From Leptonemataceae bacterium (GTDB lineage Bacteria > Spirochaetota > Leptospiria > Leptospirales > Leptonemataceae): DNA of 64,000 nucleotides. The stretch covers positions 4,000,001 to 4,064,000 of the forward strand of contig OZ245742.1 in NCBI GenBank assembly GCA_965227295.1, given 5' to 3'. Below, piece after piece: positions 8,716-49,018 of this stretch; positions within the stretch are counted from its first letter, which is position 1; each line of letters starts with the position of its first letter. Under the pieces are notes generated by a model that saw nothing but the letters and a program-made list of their open reading frames with translations, had not been told where the DNA came from and made no database searches. A program made the position numbers and the translations under genes.

Positions 8716-11214
8716 TCACTCAATCAGCTTCCGGATCTCCGCCGCATTCGGCGCGTTCGGGTACAGCTCCAGATACTTCTGCAAGTGCGCCTTCGCATCC
8801 CGCGGGCGGTTCAGATCGCGGTACAGCAGCAGCCCGAGTTGCTCGTTCGCCTGCACGTGATTCGGCTGCACCGCGAGCAACGAGGCATATGTACTGGCCG
8901 CGGCCTGGTAGTCGTTGGTGTCCCGGTACGAAAGCGCCAGGTTCAGATAAGCTTCCGCACGCCGTGACTTAATGCGAATGGCGTTCTTGTAGGCGCGCCG
9001 GGCCTCGGCGTGCTCGTCAAGTTTGCGGTAGAGATTGCCCGCGTTGAAATGCAGCCGATAATCGCTTGTGTTCGTCGTCGTCGCGCGACGCATCACCGAA
9101 ACGGCGTCGAGGCGCTGGCCGGATTTCAGGAGCAGCGGCACCGCTTCGATGGCGGCGTCGGCGTGACCGGGATTCAGCTTCAACGCCCGTTCGAAGGCGG
9201 CGAGGGCGGCCTGGTCTTCGCCGCTGTCCCGGTGCAATCGACCGATCGTGTAATGCAGGGCGGGGTCGTCGGGCTTTACCTTCGAAGCGGATTCCAACGC
9301 CTGGAGGGCGCCGGCCGTGTCACCGCTCTTCGAAAGGGCGAGGGCCAGGTTGAAATGCGCCTCGTAACGTTTCGGTTCCAGCTGCACGGCGCGACCGTAA
9401 GCCTCGGCGGCGGACTTGTGATCGCGCTTCATCGAATACAGTTCCCCGCGCTGATAATGCAGCGCGGCGACTTTCGGATGTTGGCGGCTCTGCGTTTCCA
9501 GAACATCGAGGGCCTTCGAACTACGCCGTTTTTGTTTCAGCAAAATGGCCAGATTGAGCGCGGCCTGCCAGCGATCCGGATCGCGTTCCAGGAGATCTTC
9601 ATACGTATGAATGGCTTCGTTCGTGCGGCCGGCCTTCGCCTGACTGACGCCCAGGTTAAAGCGCGCCTGGTGTAAGTTTGGAGCGAGCTGCACGGCATCC
9701 GCAAAGTAACGCACCGCATCGGCGTAGCGGCGTTCGCGGAAGTGGATCTCACCGAGATAGTAGCGGGGCCGGTGATCTTTGGGGCCCAGGTTGGCGGAGC
9801 GTACGTAGGCGGCCCGGGCGTCCTGGTGCCGGCCGGTCCGATCATACACGCGACCGGTGAAGTAGTGGACCTCGCCGTCCTTCGGCGCCAGGCTTGCGGC
9901 GCGGCGAAAACTCTCGAGGGCGCGGTCGTACTCTTTTTCTTCGTAGAAACGTTTGCCCTCGGCTTTGAGATCGGTCACGGACTGGCCGCGGCCCGGGTCT
10001 TCGAAAACGTCCGACGAAAGCGCCGCGGTGACTTCGCGGCCGGCGCGGTCCGTCACCGTGACCAGCACGCCGTCTTCGTTAGCTGCTTCTGAGCTTGAAT
10101 TAGGGGCCTCGCCGTTCGTTTCACCGGACGCATCGAAGCCGGCCACGGTAATGGCGCCGTTCGGATCCACCGCCAGGTCGAAGACGTCCGACGGCAGTTC
10201 GTTCGTTGCCTGTTCATCGTGGGCCAGGCTTTGCGCGGGAGTGCGGGCGGTGCGTTGGGCCGCGAGAAACTTCGAGCGCAGGATGCGATTGTCAATGTCG
10301 TAACGTAAGGCCATGCGATAGGCCAACTCTACGGCGGCCGCGGGCGCGTTCGTCGCGCGGCGCAGATCGCCCACGCGTTCCCATACTCTGGCCTGGCGTT
10401 CGTCCAGGTGGACGGAGCGTTCGTAGGCGGCGAGGGCCCCGGTGAGATCGCTACCGCGTCGTTCCTTGCCGAAACGGACTTCGTAGGCGCGGCCGAGCGC
10501 GAGCCAGTTCTCCGCGGTCTCCGGCTTCGCGCGCACGGCGGCTTCCAGAACCTGCACGGCCTCGTGGACCCGGCCCTGTTTCAACAGGTACACGCCCTTG
10601 TTCTTTAAGGCAACGCTGCTCGTGGGATTGTTGCGAATGCCTTCGTTCAGGACTTCCTCGGCCGCCTCGCGATCGCCTTCTTCTTCGAAGACGGCCGCGC
10701 GCTTCGCGTACGATTCAGGATGCCCCGGTTCCACCCGGGAGGCGGTCTCGTACTCGAAGACGGCGTCCTCGGTGCGGCCCTCGATGTGGCGGACGTCGCC
10801 GCGGCGGTTGTAGGCCGGGGCGCGGTCCGGCAGCATGGCGGAAGCATCGGCGGCACTACCCCAGGCAGCGGGCAGGCGGCCTGCCTCTAACTGTCGCTCG
10901 GACAATCTTACCATCACGGCGTACTTTTGTTCGCGGACGATGCCCTCCAGTTGCAGGGCCCGTTCCAGGACCGCAATAGACCGGGGCAGATCACCGCGGA
11001 GCCTGTGCAGATGGGCGAGGTCCAGGTAGTCGTAGAGGGCGCCGGCGTCGTCGTCCAGGCGGGCTTCCAGCTCCGCGATCTCGGCGGCCAGGGCGTCCCC
11101 GGGTAAATCGGTCTGGCCGCGCTGGTAGAGATTGTAACCCAGGGCCAGGCAGAGGAACAGGGCCCCGCCGATCATAACGTCCAGGGCGCGACGATTCCGA
11201 AAGAGTGCGTACAT
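8716..11214 (-). CDS. Membrane-anchored multi-TPR protein
   Basis: N-terminal hydrophobic helix followed by many TPR motifs; AAAAAGG before ATG at 11214. Confidence 0.85.
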   Translation of the reverse strand: MYALFRNRRALDVMIGGALFLCLALGYNLYQRGQTDLPGDALAAEIAELEARLDDDAGALYDYLDLAHLHRLRGDLPRSIAVLERALQLEGIVREQKYAVMVRLSERQLEAGRLPAAWGSAADASAMLPDRAPAYNRRGDVRHIEGRTEDAVFEYETASRVEPGHPESYAKRAAVFEEEGDREAAEEVLNEGIRNNPTSSVALKNKGVYLLKQGRVHEAVQVLEAAVRAKPETAENWLALGRAYEVRFGKERRGSDLTGALAAYERSVHLDERQARVWERVGDLRRATNAPAAAVELAYRMALRYDIDNRILRSKFLAAQRTARTPAQSLAHDEQATNELPSDVFDLAVDPNGAITVAGFDASGETNGEAPNSSSEAANEDGVLVTVTDRAGREVTAALSSDVFEDPGRGQSVTDLKAEGKRFYEEKEYDRALESFRRAASLAPKDGEVHYFTGRVYDRTGRHQDARAAYVRSANLGPKDHRPRYYLGEIHFRERRYADAVRYFADAVQLAPNLHQARFNLGVSQAKAGRTNEAIHTYEDLLERDPDRWQAALNLAILLKQKRRSSKALDVLETQSRQHPKVAALHYQRGELYSMKRDHKSAAEAYGRAVQLEPKRYEAHFNLALALSKSGDTAGALQALESASKVKPDDPALHYTIGRLHRDSGEDQAALAAFERALKLNPGHADAAIEAVPLLLKSGQRLDAVSVMRRATTTNTSDYRLHFNAGNLYRKLDEHAEARRAYKNAIRIKSRRAEAYLNLALSYRDTNDYQAAASTYASLLAVQPNHVQANEQLGLLLYRDLNRPRDAKAHLQKYLELYPNAPNAAEIRKLIE

Positions 11215-39968: not shown

Positions 39969-40031
39969 GGTCAACCTTTTTCCCCTTTACAGCCAGGGCT
40001 GTGTCCTCGATCTTCCCCCGGGTAATTTTAC

Positions 40032-41009
40032 ATGAGTGCAAAAGTAAAAGTCGGCCTCGTTGGAACGGGGCACATGGGTCAGTACCACGTCAACGTCAGC
40101 GCGGGAATCGCGGATTACGACGTCGTGGGCATTTTCGACATCGATCCGGAGCGGCGCAAAGAAATTTCCGAGCGCTTCAGCGTGCCAGAGGTCTCCACGT
40201 ACGACGAACTCGTCCAGAAGGCCGAGGCCATCGTCATCGCCGTGCCGACGGTCCTCCACTATGAGTACGCCCTCAAGGCTCTGCAGGCCGGGCGCCACGT
40301 GCTCGTGGAGAAACCCATGACCGAAACCGTCGCCCAGGCGCAGGAGTTGGTCGACATAGCGCAAAAGAACGGGCTGATTTTCCAGGTCGGCCACGTGGAG
40401 CGCTTCAACGGCGCCGTCCTGGAACTCGGTAAGATCGTGGAGCATCCGCTACTAATTGAATCGCGTCGCCTTGCCCCGTTCAACCCGCGCATCTCCGACG
40501 TCGGCGTGGTCCTCGATCTCATGATCCATGACATCGACATTGTGCTGAACCTGGTGAACGAGGACGTGAAATCGGTGCACGCCCGGGGGACCCGGGCGCT
40601 TTCGGACCACGAGGACGTGGCCGTGGCCACGATTCAGTTCGAAGGCGGCTGCGTGGCGAACCTCATCGCGTCGCGGGCCACCCAGGCTAAGATCCGGCGG
40701 CTGAACATTACGCAGGAGAGCGCGTTTATCGTCCTGGACTTTTCGACGCAGGACATCGAAATCCATCGCCGCGCTTCGTCCGCGTATCTCATGACCCGCG
40801 AAGAGTTGAAGTACAAGCAGGAATCCTTCGTCGAGAACATTGCCGTGCATCGGGACAACCCGCTGCGCCAGGAGCACCAGCACTTCCTCGCGTGCATTCG
40901 CGGGACGCAGGAAATCATCGTCGGCGGCCAGGAAGAACTTCGCACGCTCACGATTGCGTCGAAGATCCTGGACGACATTAAGAGTACGCTCCAGGTTCCG
41001 GCGGGTTAG
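40032..41009 (+). CDS. Gfo/Idh/MocA family oxidoreductase
   Basis: GLVGTGHMG, HVLVEKPM, QVGHVERFN, LDLMIHDID. Confidence 0.92.
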   Translation: MSAKVKVGLVGTGHMGQYHVNVSAGIADYDVVGIFDIDPERRKEISERFSVPEVSTYDELVQKAEAIVIAVPTVLHYEYALKALQAGRHVLVEKPMTETVAQAQELVDIAQKNGLIFQVGHVERFNGAVLELGKIVEHPLLIESRRLAPFNPRISDVGVVLDLMIHDIDIVLNLVNEDVKSVHARGTRALSDHEDVAVATIQFEGGCVANLIASRATQAKIRRLNITQESAFIVLDFSTQDIEIHRRASSAYLMTREELKYKQESFVENIAVHRDNPLRQEHQHFLACIRGTQEIIVGGQEELRTLTIASKILDDIKSTLQVPAG

Positions 41010-41662
41010 TCTTTCCCGGCCGGGGAATCGAGCAGCAACAGCCCGTCCATCTTCATCTGCAACGTTTCGTCCGCCGTCGCCTCGCGCAGGTTTTCCAGGC
41101 GGAGCCGAAATGCCTTTTGATCGCGCGCGTTCTGTGCGTCCCGGCGTAAGCTTAACAATCTTGCCATTTCGTAGCGGGCCTCGTTCGCGGCCGCGCTGAT
41201 GGTTCCCATGGATTGCAACCGCCCGGCACGGGCCACGTCCTGTAAGGACTGGTCCGCGGAACGGTAGACCAGCAGCGCGTTCTGCATGGAACGGCTGACG
41301 CAATGAGACGACGGGCATGCTCGGGGTATCGCACGCGAGCGGCACGGGTGCTGGCCGTGCGGAGGGCGGTGATGACCTGCTCGGCCTGGGCCTTCTTCAT
41401 GCCCTTAATTTCATCTGCGCACTTGTTTACGCCGGCGTCGCGCAGTTCGATGCGCGTAAGGTCTTCTTTGACCGGAACGGCGTCTTCGTTTCGGAAAAGC
41501 CATCGAGCCAGTGCGCCTTCGCGCCCGACGGACCAGGCCGGAGAGCCGGGCGTCGTAGAGCATATAGAACCAGTAACACAATCCACCGGCCATGCCGAAG
41601 AGCAGCACGATCAGCCGGGAGTGCCATTCGACATGTGAGAGGATTTCGCGGAGGCGTTCCAT
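41006..41662 (-). pseudogene. Membrane-anchored hypothetical gene broken by two frameshifts (or sequence errors)
   Basis: Protein-like reading passes from ORF 41411-41695 (TM helix) to ORF 41152-41586 (REGALARWLFRNEDAVPVKEDL...) to ORF 41006-41287. Confidence 0.55.
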
Positions 41663-41720
41663 GATTTCGAAAATATAGTGGTGGCGGGATTTCACCGCAA
41701 TTCGGTTCCTTGCAGGCAGA

Positions 41721-43181
41721 ATGTCCCGCGCCCTGAAAAACCCGGAAATCGCCGATTCCGGAAAGAATCTTTCAAATGCCGGCGAGGTCGTTGCCGATCG
41801 TGAAGCACGGCTCGGGCGGTTCTATGTCGAAACCTACGGCTGCCAGATGAACGAGTACGACTCGGGCCTGGTGCGCTCGATCCTGGGGGACGGCGGCTTC
41901 AGCCGCGCGGATTCGCCGGAAGACGCCGGCATCATCCTGCTCAACACCTGCGCCATTCGCGAGAAAGCGCACGAGAAAATCTACAATCGCCTGGCGTCCC
42001 TGGGCCACTTGAAGCGCCGCGAGCCGCGCGTGGTGATCGGCGTGCTGGGTTGTATGGCGCAAAACCTGGGAGACGATTTGTTCGCCCAGGGCCTGCCCGT
42101 GGATTTTGTGATGGGGCCGGACAATTATCGGGAGCTGCCGGAGATCGTCGCGCGCATCCGTGGCGGTGTCGAAAGCAATTTGAACATCACCCAACTGTCG
42201 CGCACCGAAACCTACGATGACATCGATCCGTGCGTGGTCTCCGGCCGTCTCGCGTTCGTGACGATTATGCGCGGCTGTGATAACTTTTGTTCGTTCTGCG
42301 TGGTCCCGTACACTCGCGGCCGCGAACGCTCCCGGGATCCGGATACGATCGTGCGCGAGATCAACGGCCTCGTGCACGATCGGTGTGTGCGTGAGGTGAC
42401 GCTGCTCGGGCAGAACGTGAACTCGTATAAGTTCGGCGCCGACGAAGGCCGGGGGGATCGTGATGACGGCCTCGTACGCTTTAAGGATCTCGTGGAGCGC
42501 ATCCTGCGCGAAACGGAGATCGCGCGCATTCGGTTTACGTCGCCGCACCCCCACGATTTTCCGGAAGACCTGCTACAGTTAATGGCGGACGAACCGCGCT
42601 TCTGCCGGCACATTCATTTGCCCGTGCAGTCCGGCGCGTCGTCTACGCTCGAACGCATGAAGCGCGACTACAATCGCGAGGAATTCCTGGCGCTGGTGCG
42701 GCGCATCCGCGAATTGATGCCGGACGTCGGCCTGACCACGGACGTGATCGTCGGTTTCTCCGGCGAAACCGACGCCGAGTTCGAAGAGACGCTCTCGATT
42801 ATGCGCGAGGTGCGTTTCGACATGGCGTATATGTTTCATTATTCGGAGCGCACGCTAACGTACGCTCACAAGCGCTTACCGGACGACGTTCCACAAGAGG
42901 TAAAACTCGAACGCCTGCGCCGGCTGATCGAACTGCAAACGGAGATTGCCCGGGAGAACAACGTCTCGGCCATCGGCCAATCGTTCGAGGTGCTCATTGA
43001 GGGGCGCTCCAAACGTTCGGCGAAAGAGTTGATGGGTCGTAACGACGCGAATCGCACGATCGTGTTCCCGATTCCCGACGGCGCGGACGACGTGAACGCG
43101 CTGGATGATTGGATGGGGAGGCTCGTGACGGTGCGCGTCACCGAATCCACCGGCGCGACGCTGCGCGGCGAACTCATCTGA
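41721..43181 (+). CDS. miaB: tRNA i6A37 methylthiotransferase
   Basis: [65 protein letters not shown] end. Confidence 0.96.
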
Positions 43182-43302
43182 AACCACGCCAGGACAGATT
43201 TCCCCGCCCCCGTTGCGCTCCGGTCAACCGAAAATGTCACACCCGGATGATAGAGTAAGCGGGGGGATTGTGCGACGAGTGAGCCGTTCAGACGCCTCTT
43301 CC

Positions 43303-43417
43303 GCGTGAGCGATTGGAAGGGTGCCGCGTAGCGGCAGTCCGAAGCGAAGCGCAGGACCGAAGCCGAAGGCGGAGCCCTGGAAAGCGCGACCCCGCGCTTG
43401 CGCGGGGGCACGCCCAA
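43303..43417 (+). repeat. Family B element, copy 3
   Basis: GCGTGAGCGAT...GCCGAAGGCGGAGCCC...CACGCCCAA. Confidence 0.85.
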
Positions 43418-43427
43418 AAACCATCAT

Positions 43428-46400
43428 TCAATTCTCAGACGACTTTTTCTTTTTCGCGGCTCGCTGTTTTCTCGGCGCCTCGGTGGTTGCATCTTCTTCC
43501 TGTCCCTGCGCGCGCCCGATCAATCCCAGCACGCGTGCCTTGCCGAACATCCACAGGCGACCGAACGCTAACCTTGCATCAACGTTATTTAAGTAAAAAC
43601 ACGGAATTAGAAACAAAGAGATCTGCGTCGACAGGATGAGTCCCCAGGCGATGGCGAGCACCATGGGTTCGATGAAGGGATCCGAACCACCGACCCCGTA
43701 GGCCGTCGGCAGAAGACCGGTGACCGTGGTGATGGTGGTGATGATGATCGGCCGGAGGCGACGGGCCGCGCCGGCGACGACGTCCGGAATCAGTTCGTTG
43801 GCGCTGGTATAACCGCCGGCGGCTTCGCGATCGGCGCAGAGTTTGTTGATGAACTCCACCATCATGAGCGAGTTGTTTACGACGATGCCGGAGAGTCCGA
43901 TCACGCCGATGAGACCGAGAAACGAAAACGGTCGGTCGTGAAAGTAAAAGGCCCAGATGACGCCGATCAATCCGAACGGAATGGCCGAGAGTACGACCAG
44001 GGGCTGCGTCAATGAGTTAAAGAGCAGCGTGAGCACGAGATAGATCGCGACGAAGCCGCCGATGAAGGCGAACATCAGCGACGCCATGGACTCGGCTGTT
44101 TCTTCGGCCTCGCCGCCGTAGCTGAACGTGACGCCGGGATATTCCTGCGTTTCTTTCGTGTACTTCGCGAGGATCTGATCGATGACGCCCTGGGGCTGCG
44201 TGGCGATGCCGGTCTGTGCTTCGATGGTCGTGGTGACGTCGCCGTCCGTATGCTGGATCGCCGTCTCGGCGCGGATGCGAGAAAGTTTCGCGAAGGCGCG
44301 CACCGGAACGAGCTGGCCTTGCTGATTGCGAATGTCCAGGTCGAGGACGTTGCGTACCTCGCGGCGATGTTGCACCGGAAAACGCACGCGGATGTCGATC
44401 TCCTCGTTGTTGCGTACGATGGATGTCGAGTCGATGCCGTCGAAGGCGATGCGGAGCGTACTTGCCACATCCTGCACGGTCAGTCCGGCGGCGGCCAGGG
44501 TATCGTAGGTGATGTCGAGTTTGTACTCCTCGCGACCGAGCTCGGCGGAGGTCGTCACGTCGTAGACGCCGTCCATCGCTTTGAGATCGGCGACGATCTT
44601 GTTCACGAAGAGCGCGCGGTCTTCGTCGTTGTCGGAATGGACGCGGAGTTCGATGGGTTTGCCCGCGGGAGGACCGGGCTTCTGAAGTTCCGTGCGAATC
44701 TCTTTGGCGCCAGTGACGGTGCTCATGATTTTCTCGCGGGCTTCCTCCAGGATTACACCCGCTTCGCGTGAGCGTTCGGAGAACGGGACGAGCGTTACCT
44801 GTAGATACGCCAGGTTTTGTTCGCCGCCCACCGGAGCCGCCAGGTTGTTCGAGACGTCCGTGCCGATGCGCGCCGTGTAGTACTCCAGTTCTTCCGCGGG
44901 AATTTCATCGATGATCTTTTCGATCTGCACGATGACTTCTTCGGTGGCATCGAAGGTGGCCTCGTCCTCCAGCTCGACGTACACGAAAAACGTATCCGCC
45001 CCGTCCGCCGGAAAGAGGTTGAACGGCACCAGCTTCGCCGCGCCGTACAACGAACCGAACAACAACAAGACGGCGCCGAGCGAGGTCAGATAACGATGCC
45101 GGAGCGCGATGGGCAGCGAGGCGCGGTACGGAATGGCGATGCCGTCGAAGAGCCGGTCCTGCCAGGTGCGCTGCGGTTCCGATCCGGCGGCGCCTTCGTT
45201 CTCCCGCAGCGTATGCGTAAGGTGATTCGGCATGATCAAGAAGCCGTTAAACAAGGAGCCGATGAGCGAGGCGATGATGACGGCCGGAATCACGAAGATG
45301 AACTTGCCCATGGTTCCGCTCATGGCGAACATCGGCCCGAAGGCGAGCACCGTCGTAAGTACCGACGCGACGACGGGCATAATCACTTCGATCGTGCCCG
45401 ACAGGATGCCGTCGCGTTTCGAACGCCCTTCTTGAATATGGACGATGGAGTTTTCTGAAATTACGATGGATTGATCGACGATCATCCCGAGGGCGATGAT
45501 CATGGCCGCGAGACTGATCGCGTTGATGTCCACGCCCGCCGCGGGCATAATGATGAGCGTGATGGCGAAGGACGTCGGGATCGACAGGGCGATGAGGAAC
45601 GATGAGCGAAAATCCAGGAAGACGATGAGGATCACGACGACGAGAAAGAAACCGATCACCGCGTTTGAAGCCACGACGCTGATGCGGTTGCGCACGACCT
45701 TCGAGGAATCGTTCGCCGCGGAGAGACGGATGTTCTCCGGCAGGACCGTGCCTTTTTCGTCGAGGTACTCGTAGATGCGGTCTACCGTGCTGATGATGTC
45801 GGCGTTCGCCGATTTTTTTACGATCAGCAGGATTCCGCGCTTGCCGTCGAAGATCGTGCGCATCATTTCATCGCCGTAGCCTTCTTTGACCTCGGCCACG
45901 TCTTCCACGCGCACGTCGCCGCCGCCGAAGGCGGAGCGCACGATCACCTCCCGCACGTCTTCGATGGTTTCGAACTGCGACAGCGTGAGAATGTTGCGCT
46001 GCGTGCGATACGACTCTAAGTTTCCACCGGTGGCTCTTACGTTGCGGCTGTCCAGGGCGAACAGGATGTCGTTGAGGGCGATGTACTGTTGCTTGAGTTT
46101 CGCGGGATCCAGGTCCACGTGGAACTCGAGATCCCGGTACCCGTATTTGTCGATCTGCGATACGCCGCGGATGCGTTTGATGTCCCGCTCGACGAGCTTC
46201 GCCGTGCGCCGCAGTTCGCCGTAGTCCGCGTCCCCGGAAATCCCGACGACGAGGACGGGGATCTCCGATGACTTGAGATCGCGCACCTCCGGTCGACCGT
46301 CCACCTCCGCCGGCAGGTCCGACACCCTATCCACGGCGCGGCGGATCTCGTCTTTGACCTCGTCCTGATCCGGATAGTCGATGTCGATCTCCACCGTGAT

Positions 46401-46670
46401 CGACGACACGTTCTCCGCGGACACCGACTTGAAGTTATCGATGCCGGCGATGCCCTTGAGTTCGTCCTCGATGAGCCGGGTGACGTTCTGTTCCACGTCT
46501 TTGGGCGACGCGCCCGGGTAGCGCGTGGTGACGATCATGGTGCCCAGGTCCACCTCCGGGAACTCGTTCCGGTTGATGCTCAGGGCCGTGGAAAAGGCCA
46601 CGCCGAAGATGCCGATGAGCACGATGTTGACGAGGAGGGTGCGGTCCAGGAAGAACTCAATCAAACGCAT
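43428..46670 (-). CDS. RND efflux transporter permease subunit (AcrB/AcrD/AcrF family)
   Basis: YPGASP.DVE, GMIVDQSIVISEN, GIVVNNS, RLRPIIITT, 12-TM layout. Confidence 0.93.
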   Translation of the reverse strand: MRLIEFFLDRTLLVNIVLIGIFGVAFSTALSINRNEFPEVDLGTMIVTTRYPGASPKDVEQNVTRLIEDELKGIAGIDNFKSVSAENVSSITVEIDIDYPDQDEVKDEIRRAVDRVSDLPAEVDGRPEVRDLKSSEIPVLVVGISGDADYGELRRTAKLVERDIKRIRGVSQIDKYGYRDLEFHVDLDPAKLKQQYIALNDILFALDSRNVRATGGNLESYRTQRNILTLSQFETIEDVREVIVRSAFGGGDVRVEDVAEVKEGYGDEMMRTIFDGKRGILLIVKKSANADIISTVDRIYEYLDEKGTVLPENIRLSAANDSSKVVRNRISVVASNAVIGFFLVVVILIVFLDFRSSFLIALSIPTSFAITLIIMPAAGVDINAISLAAMIIALGMIVDQSIVISENSIVHIQEGRSKRDGILSGTIEVIMPVVASVLTTVLAFGPMFAMSGTMGKFIFVIPAVIIASLIGSLFNGFLIMPNHLTHTLRENEGAAGSEPQRTWQDRLFDGIAIPYRASLPIALRHRYLTSLGAVLLLFGSLYGAAKLVPFNLFPADGADTFFVYVELEDEATFDATEEVIVQIEKIIDEIPAEELEYYTARIGTDVSNNLAAPVGGEQNLAYLQVTLVPFSERSREAGVILEEAREKIMSTVTGAKEIRTELQKPGPPAGKPIELRVHSDNDEDRALFVNKIVADLKAMDGVYDVTTSAELGREEYKLDITYDTLAAAGLTVQDVASTLRIAFDGIDSTSIVRNNEEIDIRVRFPVQHRREVRNVLDLDIRNQQGQLVPVRAFAKLSRIRAETAIQHTDGDVTTTIEAQTGIATQPQGVIDQILAKYTKETQEYPGVTFSYGGEAEETAESMASLMFAFIGGFVAIYLVLTLLFNSLTQPLVVLSAIPFGLIGVIWAFYFHDRPFSFLGLIGVIGLSGIVVNNSLMMVEFINKLCADREAAGGYTSANELIPDVVAGAARRLRPIIITTITTVTGLLPTAYGVGGSDPFIEPMVLAIAWGLILSTQISLFLIPCFYLNNVDARLAFGRLWMFGKARVLGLIGRAQGQEEDATTEAPRKQRAAKKKKSSEN

Positions 46671-46849
46671 TCATCAATGAATTGATCAGGGGACCGGATC
46701 GCAACCAAAAGACACACGTCGCCCATCCCCGTGGGTGGTTTTTGGTGGTGGGATGATACTGGTGCATGACCTACCGGAGGCGCCGCGCGGCGGCCGCCCT
46801 GGTGCGATTAGCTGAAAAATGCGCGGCGGTCAACGAAAAATGTCACACC

Positions 46850-47718
46850 TTTCTCACGGCAACGCAACGAACCGCAGCTCTTGAATTACCGGCACGCTCG
46901 GGTAGCTCGCACACGCCCCGGATCGTAGTGTAAGTGGCGGCCAGTGTACATTAAGACTTTTATGGGTCCGGCTGGTTCCAGCTGACGGGCGGAGGTCATG
47001 CCGGGGAATGTGGTAGGGCGGACCGGAACGGCGTCTTCCTCGCAGCATTCGCCAACGGGAGCTGACTCACAAACCGACGTCCGGTGTCGGCAAGGCCCCG
47101 CTTATTGGGGCCGCGGCAGTTGGTTCCCCACTGACGGACAGTCTTAACAAAACGAAAATCCACAACTCCCGCTCAGCTGTAGCAAAAAAAGTCCCTTCAA
47201 CATTGCGCAACTTACTTCGTGTTTCTCACGGCAACAGTCACGAACCGCAGTAGCGGGTAGTTCGCACACGCCCCGAATCGTGGTGTAAGTGGCGGCCAAC
47301 GTAAATTAAGCCTTTTGTGGGTACGGCTGGTTCCAGCTAACGTACGGAGGTCATGCCGGGGAATGTGGTAAGGCGCACCGGAACGGCGTCTTCGCCTTAA
47401 GAAACGCGACGGTAACTGAGCCGCAAACCGACGTCCGGGTCGAGACGGACAGTCTTAACAAAACGAAAATCCACAACTCCCGCTCAGCTGTAGCAAAAAA
47501 GTCCACTCCCCCATTTCACAACTTACTCCATGTTTCTCACGGCAACGCAACGAACCGCAGCTCTTGAATTACCGGCACGCTCGGGTAGCTCGCACACGCC
47601 CCGGATCGTAGTGTAAGTGGCGGCCAGTGTACATTAAGACTTTTATGGGTCCGGCTGGTTCCAGCTGACGGGCGGAGGTCATGCCGGGGAATGTGGTAGG
47701 GCGGACCGGAACGGCGTC
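46850..47718. repeat. Non-coding tandem array A1-B1-A2-B2-A3 (units of 372 bp and 311 bp plus a 186-bp partial unit)
   Basis: 46850-47035 is identical to 47533-47718; diverged copy at 47222-47390; B blocks 47133-47194 and 47444-47504 differ only in one A-tract length. Confidence 0.95.
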
Positions 47719-47836
47719 GTCGCTTCGGAAAAGCCACCAGGCGAAGGCGCACTCCGGAGCACCGCTCCGGCTCCGAATCGTGAGACCCCAAACGATCCTT
47801 GACGCCGTCGCCCGCATCCCCACGCTATCCCCGCCC

Positions 47837-49018
47837 ATGCAACAACGCATCATAACAGTCATCATCCCGCTCATCTTAGTCGCGGCCCTCTCAACCTGCA
47901 AACCCGAACCCGCCAACGCCCAAAGCGAACGTTTCCCCGACCTGTTTCGCATCGAATGCGTCGGCAAAATCGAAGGCTGCGCCTGCTACACCGGCGCCAC
48001 CGGCAACGCCCGCAACAACGTCGCGTACCATGCCGAAGCCGCACGATCCACCGGCGCCGCGGAAAACGGCCGCGTCCCCATTGAACTCGAAACCCGGGGC
48101 GTAAGTTGCTGGTATCCCGAAACCGAATTGCGGCCCATGCCGTACGCTAAAGTCCCCGAATCGCCACTTAAGAAAATCGACCACACGCCGAAGTCCCTCG
48201 ATAAAATCGTGCCCGGCGCCACGGTGGAGTCGCTGAGTCAAAAACCGCATCGTTCGTTGGGCCGATTCTGGGCCACGTACTATCATCTCGCCGATGAACA
48301 CTATCATCCCGGCAAAGAGGTGGCCGTAAAAACGCCGGCGGGTTTGGAACTGGGGCGTGCTTCGGAAGATTTTCTCAAGCAGGTCACCTGGCAGGGCAGC
48401 GGCATCGCAAAGAACGGCCTGCGGCTGCACTACAGCGGATCGAACATGCGTTTCAACACCTACGCAAAAGACATGTGGGGCCACGGCGCCGGCTACGGCT
48501 ACCGTGTGTTCCCGTACCGAACGATCGCCGTTAACTTTCGTGGAGTGTGTGCTAAGATCTTCCCGAACAAAAAACGCTGCGGCAAAAAACAGGTGATCGG
48601 CAGTCTGGTGCGCATCCGCGAGGTGGCCGCGAAGAACATCGCAATGCCCGGCGGTACGATCCACGACGGATACTTCTGTGCCACGGATACCGGCAGCCCG
48701 CACTACATAAAGTCGGATCGCATCGATATCTTCGTCGGCGTACACGGCGGCGGCAATCCGTACCTGCCGCCGGAGCGCAGATCGAACGCGCTCATCGCCG
48801 GCGGCATTCGGAACCTGGTGCCGTCCGACTGGCGCCTCTGGAAAAACAAGAACGATCGCGTCTGGTGCGATGCGAACAAGCTTCCGACGGATCCCGCGCG
48901 GCCGAAGCCGGGGGACTGCACCTACGACTACCACGTCGTCGCGCAACAGAAGGCCCTGCACATCGACGTGGTCCTGGACGGCAAAGGCAATCCGATACGT
49001 TGTGCGAAACGGCCGTAA
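47837..49018 (+). CDS. Putative lipoprotein with a 3D (MltA-like) domain
   Basis: MQQRIITVIIPLILVAALSTC lipobox-like; ATYY, RTIAVN, ATDTGS...IKSDRIDIFVG. Confidence 0.7.
   Translation: MQQRIITVIIPLILVAALSTCKPEPANAQSERFPDLFRIECVGKIEGCACYTGATGNARNNVAYHAEAARSTGAAENGRVPIELETRGVSCWYPETELRPMPYAKVPESPLKKIDHTPKSLDKIVPGATVESLSQKPHRSLGRFWATYYHLADEHYHPGKEVAVKTPAGLELGRASEDFLKQVTWQGSGIAKNGLRLHYSGSNMRFNTYAKDMWGHGAGYGYRVFPYRTIAVNFRGVCAKIFPNKKRCGKKQVIGSLVRIREVAAKNIAMPGGTIHDGYFCATDTGSPHYIKSDRIDIFVGVHGGGNPYLPPERRSNALIAGGIRNLVPSDWRLWKNKNDRVWCDANKLPTDPARPKPGDCTYDYHVVAQQKALHIDVVLDGKGNPIRCAKRP

Follow-up and report, generated by a model that had tools for sequence, protein, structure and literature searches.

Why the end of a tandem repeat array should match a disrupted gene elsewhere on the same stretch of DNA, with one tract in direct and the next in inverted orientation, was the question raised by this locus. 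The stretch analyzed, referred to here as the window, comprised 64,000 nt of the genome of a Leptonemataceae bacterium (GCA_965227295.1, contig OZ245742.1, positions 4,000,001 to 4,064,000 of the forward strand). The 33-mer at 47704-47736, at the end of the array, had a single other copy in the window, located at 41470-41502 on the same strand and identical at 31 of 33 positions (two mismatches); two matches were reached in none of 100 shuffled sequences, with an expected number of 0.00. Directly beyond it, the 13-mer GCGAAGGCGCACT at 47741-47753 on the plus strand was carried as an exact reverse complement at 41510-41522 on the minus strand, again beyond chance. A third exact copy of this 13-mer in the window (8784-8796, minus strand; expected, 0.01) lay in apparent coding sequence with flanks that had no similarity to those of the other copies, and it is probably unrelated to the two main loci. 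A repeat comparison within the window paired 41470-41516 with 47704-47750 in direct orientation, over 47 nt and at 83%, and two tracts inside the array, A1 (47021-47038) and A2 (47376-47393), had a 17-18-mer in common with 41470-41487. The matches reported in the original prediction were all reproduced, including an 18-nt match of A1 and A2 to the 41470-41488 tract, which proved to be a 17-18-mer belonging to the whole repeat family. That prediction had offered four explanations, among which a recombination or integration scar was upheld, while capture of a gene fragment, an antisense RNA, and a bipartite guide were not.

The array extended over 46849-47767 and was made up of three units of a head-to-tail repeat family with a unit length of approximately 330 nt. 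Searching the window with the family profile (nhmmer) yielded exactly three matches, all on the plus strand: unit 1 at 46849-47208 (model positions 13-330, also delimited by repeat comparison), unit 2 at 47209-47517 (model positions 1-328), and unit 3 at 47520-47731 (model positions 1-215). Over 189 nt, units 1 and 3 were 99% identical (46850-47038 versus 47533-47721), whereas the middle unit was divergent, with 73-80% identity to both, and near-identical units on either side of a divergent one suggest a recent two-unit duplication or gene conversion. Unit 1 additionally carried an optional 49-nt insertion on the plus strand (47085-47133) containing a GC hairpin, GGCCCC-GCTTATT-GGGGCC. A genome search found 26 further copies of this insertion in or near arrays and 3 outside them, and the insertion is another optional module of the mosaic.

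At its end, the array departed from the plain repeat unit. A small hairpin block, GGCGGACCGGAACGGCGTCGTC, at 47700-47721 on the plus strand was the most conserved block of the family by conservation profile, and its 3' part was the 17-18-mer common to A1, A2, and the 41-kb site; the invariant block proper occupied 47704-47721. Comparison with 50 module-bearing copies and alignments identified the sequence that followed, GCTTCGGAAAAGCCACCAG at 47722-47740 (plus strand), as the leader of an optional hairpin module. The left arm of the hairpin and the first bases of its loop were present at 47741-47767 (plus strand), where the module was cut off with no right arm. Abutting the truncated hairpin, a 20-nt fragment at 47763-47782 on the plus strand resembled unit positions ~76-95 (80%) in the repeat comparison. 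The array end reads as a patchwork of fragments.

The extent of the family became apparent when the complete genome was searched (a single contig of 5,938,550 bases with 59.8% G+C). When the last unit of the window array served as query, at least 92 matches were obtained, with 40 of the 170 candidates scored, and blastn returned 272 matches in 102 loci. From 54 complete units, for which the period was mostly 327-332 nt, a profile was derived, and nhmmer searching with this profile gave 301 matches that covered 74,326 bases, or ~1.25% of the genome, in 113 arrays of 1 to 7 matches each. Median unit identity was 82.8% inside an array versus 78.1% between arrays, and the closest relative was located in another array for 146 of 214 units. 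According to a crude gene call based on ORFs and GC3, 43 of the 113 arrays were situated between convergent genes, 32 and 24 in the two tandem arrangements, and 10 between divergent genes, so that arrays favored the 3' sides of genes and avoided divergent (promoter) regions. The window array was itself among the 10 arrays between divergent genes. The plus strand of the unit was the leading strand in 70 arrays versus 43, a mild bias that was not separable from the bias in gene orientation.

The module cut short at the array end was complete elsewhere in the genome. In total, 50 genome matches ran past unit position ~204 into sequence of the kind found at the window array end, and comparison gave the order of the full module as the invariant block ACCGGAACGGCGTCTTC, the leader GTTTCGGAAAAnCCATCAA, the left arm GCGAAGGCGCACTCCGGAGCCCCGC, the loop TCTATCC, the right arm GCGGGGCGGAGCGAGTGCGCCTTCGC, and GCCCG, after which a second copy of the invariant block was present in many full modules. 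The module was optional and was placed 3' of ACCGGAACGGCGTCTTC, a block that was near-invariant in the form GGCG.ACCGGAACGGCGTCTTC and had 168 exact copies in the genome. The leader of ~20 nt was followed by a 21-bp hairpin, the left arm of which began with GCGAAGGCGCAC and the right arm of which ended with GTGCGCCTTCGC. The hairpin had an outer stem of 14 bp and an inner stem of 7 bp, which were separated by a conserved purine-rich internal loop (CGGA / GGAGC) and closed by a loop of 7 nt.

A genome search with the hairpin only found 48 sites, 47 of which were in unit arrays or no more than 150 nt from one, and the sole solo site (genome positions 4041505-4041527) corresponded to 41505-41527 of the window. 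Similarly, a single copy of ACCGGAACGGCGTCTTC among the 168 was more than 200 nt from any array, and it was the one at 41 kb. Hairpins were last in their array at 25 sites and were followed by more unit sequence at 22, with 1 solo, and the module was therefore enriched at array ends and not restricted to them. Throughout the genome, module copies had one orientation and one position relative to the unit.

The tract at 41 kb was a remnant of this same module. Its first part (41470-41508, plus strand, from alignments) consisted of the conserved 18-mer at 41470-41487 and the leader at 41488-41508, and its second part (41509-41530, plus strand, from pairwise alignment) consisted of the distal right arm, AGTGCGCCTTCGC, and GCCCG. 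Against a full copy, the tract aligned on either side of a 42-nt gap that removed the left arm and loop together with the inner part of the right arm; this gap was obtained by pairwise alignment with cheap gap extension and by inspection, and MAFFT on six sequences opened no such gap. For the array end, similarity to a full copy extended through the left arm and ceased there.

The gene surrounding the remnant was examined through its orthologues. In two genomes of the same genus, proteins of 340 and 356 aa are encoded on the minus strand between a Gfo/Idh/MocA oxidoreductase gene and miaB; the MiaB identity of 75-76% to these two genomes indicated that they are distant. Pfam and a protein atlas provided no usable match for the intact orthologue. 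In the window, the remains of this membrane/coiled-coil protein gene occupied 41036-41695 on the minus strand as three homologous pieces in two different frames. With an orthologue as the tblastn query, residues 3-45 aligned to 41659-41531, residues 132-187 to 41472-41302 in the other frame, and residues 244-330 to 41293-41036, all on the minus strand. In place of residues 46-131 (86 codons), there was ~58 nt of repeat remnant, and 8 nt (41294-41301) was all that was left of residues 188-243 (56 codons). Homology stopped at 41531 and restarted at 41472 in another frame, and the first frameshift of the gene did adjoin the matching tract, as had been predicted. The prospect of a scar was also borne out, as the 41-kb tract was a 61-nt remnant of a repeat module exactly at the site of the 86 missing codons. 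Contigs of two public sequencing runs, which may be the assembly's own data, had 0 differences and 0 gaps over 40800-42979, and the genome contained no intact paralogue. A third run, with the same species label, covered almost nothing of the stretch and supplied no allele for comparison. The 41-kb gene is a pseudogene with two lesions. One of these is marked by the remnant, which ties the loss of this gene to the activity of the repeat family.

At 41 kb, the tract falls within an open reading frame, which was compatible with the reverse direction of transfer: the array end would have acquired part of the 41-kb gene, and this copy would later have spread through the family. We regard this capture as very improbable. 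The 61-nt tract was absent from the orthologous loci of the two same-genus genomes, where 8-12-nt chance matches alone were found. At 41 kb, the tract stood in place of 86 codons and encoded no conserved residues, and the module was present at ~48 sites in this genome with a constant position and orientation in the units.

In our reading, which we hold with high confidence, the two loci carry one and the same palindromic sub-module of a repeat family specific to this genome, damaged in a different way at each. At the array end (47704-47767), what survives runs from the invariant block through the leader to the left arm; at the 41-kb site, the same block and leader are joined to the outer part of the right arm. 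The leader is common to both loci, and therefore the first match is direct; the second is inverted because the left and right arms of one hairpin are reverse complements, and remnants that keep opposite arms of a hairpin must match in this way. A module or an array would once have been located inside the 41-kb gene, and later deletions would have taken the hairpin core, most of the repeat, and ~258 nt of the gene. A further ~160 nt of the gene would have been lost nearby, leaving the pseudogene.

The core may have been lost by deletion between short direct repeats, AGCGA, which are found at the left-arm base and within the right arm. In full copies, AGCGA bounds the missing core on both sides, and the 41-kb sequence would match the clean product of such a deletion except for two substitutions, in a remnant that is as short as 61 nt. 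Deletion between short repeats is a usual fate of long palindromes. We infer that insertion preceded deletion at 41 kb; no allele with an intact module or array was seen, and a single replacement would be equally compatible with the sequence. The 41-kb copy appears to be a relic, the decay scar of a very abundant repeat specific to this genome.

An alternative that gives the match a function is pairing over 33 nt between a plus-strand transcript of the array end and the mRNA of the 41-kb gene, which is encoded on the minus strand. As both tracts have one orientation, a plus-strand RNA from the array would indeed be complementary to the mRNA of that gene. The gene was broken twice with no intact copy in the genome, and such an RNA would lack specificity because the same 17-mer is present 168 times. 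A dedicated antisense RNA seems very unlikely to us, as its target gene is dead and the complementarity is accounted for as a by-product of repeat sequence that the two loci have in common.

Another rival was a bipartite guide resembling an IS110 bridge RNA, as predicted, or a CRISPR-like array: each unit would consist of a scaffold and a variable guide, and the guide of the last unit would pair with the 41-kb target on both strands. The general layout of the unit, in which a conserved body gives way to a more variable region (model positions 205-225), was in keeping with this idea, as were the hairpin with its conserved internal loop and covarying stem and the presence of one IS110-type gene in the genome. 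However, the putative guide tracts were parts of the conserved module found at ~48 sites, and this module recurred in other arrays. The segments after A1 and A2, proposed as further guides, had 3 and 7 matches, respectively, all of them in other arrays with 0 outside, and there were none in plasmids and phages. With the tract conserved in other arrays and these segments unmatched outside arrays, the guide idea failed the test set for it in the original prediction. IS110 bridge RNAs are encoded beside the gene for their IS110-family DEDD recombinase. Here, the array had no adjacent DEDD recombinase gene, and the sole PF01548 match of the genome, at 95522-95983, was ~3.95 Mb away and near no array examined. 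TnpB and the Y1 transposase were also absent from the genome, and Rfam 15 gave 0 matches at E ≤ 1 in window positions 40000-49000 and in five loci with full modules. The likeness to a bridge RNA is purely formal, that of a single RNA carrying two segments that confer specificity, and here the segments are conserved parts of a repeat. We consider a guide hardly credible at this locus. An apparent guide match to two strands can be accounted for by ordinary repeat decay, which calls for caution in scans that use sequence only.

With the match explained as differential decay of a repeat module, the nature of the repeat itself had to be considered, beginning with the hairpin. Among 38 hairpin copies (31 distinct), 97.1% of the stem cells were paired. 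Changes on both sides of the stem affected 6 pairs and 39 cells, a value reached by 0 of 500 shuffles, and slid controls yielded no more than 10 such cells. The internal loop was near-invariant across hairpin copies, and the full module had a predicted RNA fold of -65.5 kcal/mol (z, -3.7). In the stem, 17 cells were of the G:T type versus 3 of the A:C type, counts that are non-independent as the copies are related, and this excess hints that the plus strand of the unit is the strand in which the module folds. Together, the hairpin module appears to be under structural constraint in single-stranded form.

The same excess of G:T-type over A:C-type cells was in keeping with an alternative in which the units are independently transcribed genes for small RNAs or small proteins, and not selfish or structural DNA repeats. 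Several other features pointed in this direction: conservation along the unit was uneven, with invariant blocks between variable ones, the consensus was open for 93 codons on the minus strand, and units 1 and 2 of the window array had a terminator-like hairpin with a T-run on the minus strand. However, compensatory changes were present in the module hairpin and almost absent from the unit body, where the helices proposed by RNAalifold had 34 compensatory cells among 10417, with 783 broken. The consensus folds of the plus (-54.1) and minus (-50.4) strands were equally weak and had 3 pairs in common. As a route to structure in the unit body, mutual information was rejected, as it was dominated by neighboring, subfamily-linked columns. 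The longest consensus frame, that of 93 codons, had no coding signal and was rejected as a conserved coding frame; pN/pS was 0.82-0.86, alike in all three minus frames, and of 104 near-complete units, only about one in five kept the full frame. A search of 46600-47900 revealed no sigma-70-like promoter, and divergent (promoter) regions held just 10 of the 113 arrays. We consider independent RNA or protein genes unlikely, and the family, as judged from these comparisons, is best regarded as non-coding.

For a DNA repeat of this abundance, signs of mobility were sought. Terminal inverted repeats at the unit ends scored 15 versus a shuffle mean of 13.5, and 121 of 500 shuffles scored as high. By eye, there was no target-site duplication at 31 solitary matches, and unit boundaries were not sharp. 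The 15 gaps of 0.5-4 kb between unit matches had no sequence in common that could represent an autonomous partner; one of them holds an ORF that we take to be IS481/IS3-like from its visible N-terminal sequence and that is presumably a secondary insertion. The Y1 transposase (PF01797) had 0 matches in this genome, for which completeness was 93.55%, and the controls were positive in 6 of 14 genomes. Ten RVT_1 matches were found in the genome, in several groups of equal score and in frames of 341-624 aa, and were not linked to arrays. Examples at genome positions 40883-41494 and 765390-766001 were outside the window. We assume that these loci are multi-copy retroelements, presumably group II introns.

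Among known systems, the closest in kind are REP/BIME elements and MITE clusters. As described in PMC2817692, REP and BIME sequences are high-copy, mostly intergenic, GC-rich imperfect palindromes that form mosaics of modules, with REPs alternating in orientation. The present family is likewise high-copy and mostly intergenic, contains a GC-rich imperfect palindrome (48 hairpin sites), is a mosaic of optional modules, and favors the 3' sides of genes. However, its units are ~330 nt long and are all arranged head to tail, unlike the alternating REPs of BIMEs, and its hairpin is an optional part of a far larger unit. In addition, the REP-associated tyrosine transposase (RAYT, Y1_Tnp) is absent from this genome. 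PMC10969869 describes MITEs and the pneumococcal elements BOX, RUP, and SPRITE as adjoining or nesting in one another, and the family resembles these in being non-coding, a few hundred nt long, multi-copy, clustered or nested, and present in pseudogenes. It differs from MITEs in that its unit has no significant terminal inverted repeats and no autonomous partner was found between split repeat arrays. A modular intergenic DNA repeat that is closest to these two groups and lacks some defining features of each is our best reading of the sequence comparisons.

A more far-reaching possibility, to which we attach little weight, is that the ~330-nt units represent either a self-propagating element restricted to this lineage or a family of RNA genes, in both cases of an undescribed kind. 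Such an element would add copies head to tail, next to existing ones, with no terminal inverted repeats, Y1, TnpB, or adjacent IS110 enzyme, and the hairpin, which combines an invariant internal loop containing GGA with an outer stem that covaries and a G:U bias on the plus strand, would be a candidate single-stranded recognition site for a protein. The match that drew attention to the locus is in itself ordinary. Less so is the underlying repeat family, an unusual and uncharacterized variant of bacterial interspersed repeats. A single modular tandem family at ~1.25% of a genome provides a clean case for studying the origin and spread of such families and any action of their hairpins in RNA.

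Among the genomes and collections searched, the family was confined almost entirely to this genome. Among 40 relatives, there was no real match except for one fragment in a genome of the same genus, and none of 41 genomes of the same taxonomic family had the repeat family. An exact-pattern scan for the hairpin gave 0 matches in species genome contigs, and the pattern scan of viral contigs gave 0. The unit pattern had 9 matches in metagenomes, none of which (0 of 9) was confirmed by nhmmer, and 3 in species genomes, of which 2 were unconfirmed by nhmmer and 1 had an E value of 0.0018 over the pattern match itself. Plasmids and phages had no match to the whole array, and the intergenic regions of the sister species were too diverged to align for a comparison of empty sites. 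A literature search with general terms, and with three family motifs as text, returned no description of the repeat family. The fragment in the same-genus genome (G002, L032, positions 1449-1655) was an inverted pair resembling unit positions ~232-316, with nhmmer E values of 8e-11 and 3e-4, and this locus may be a relative or a precursor of the 3' part of the unit.

The surroundings of the window array also differed from those in related genomes. In the two same-genus genomes, a lipoprotein gene directly follows miaB, with ~300 nt between them; in the window, an AcrB-family gene (43428-46670, minus strand) and the repeat array separate the two. A 30-nt direct repeat, TGCGC..GGTCAAC.GAAAATGTCACACC, was present at 43214-43243 and 46820-46849, and window positions 43182-47836 look like a local rearrangement or insertion. 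Unit 3 contains an ATG, at 47681, that shares its frame with the downstream lipoprotein gene and yields an ORF of 445 aa (47681-49018), for which there was no Pfam match; the gene itself probably starts at the ATG at 47837, as a signal-peptide-like sequence comes directly after it. At 43296-43422, the window also contained a dispersed repeat of another, unrelated kind, ~125 nt long (GGAAGGGTGCCGCGTAGCGGCAG...GCGCGGGGGCACGCCCAAAAACC), for which blastn gave 126 matches genome-wide in both orientations, a count that includes the self-match and any matches of a second query. Over 43296-43422, contig depth in the public-run contigs rose approximately tenfold, and contigs broke at 43384-43391.
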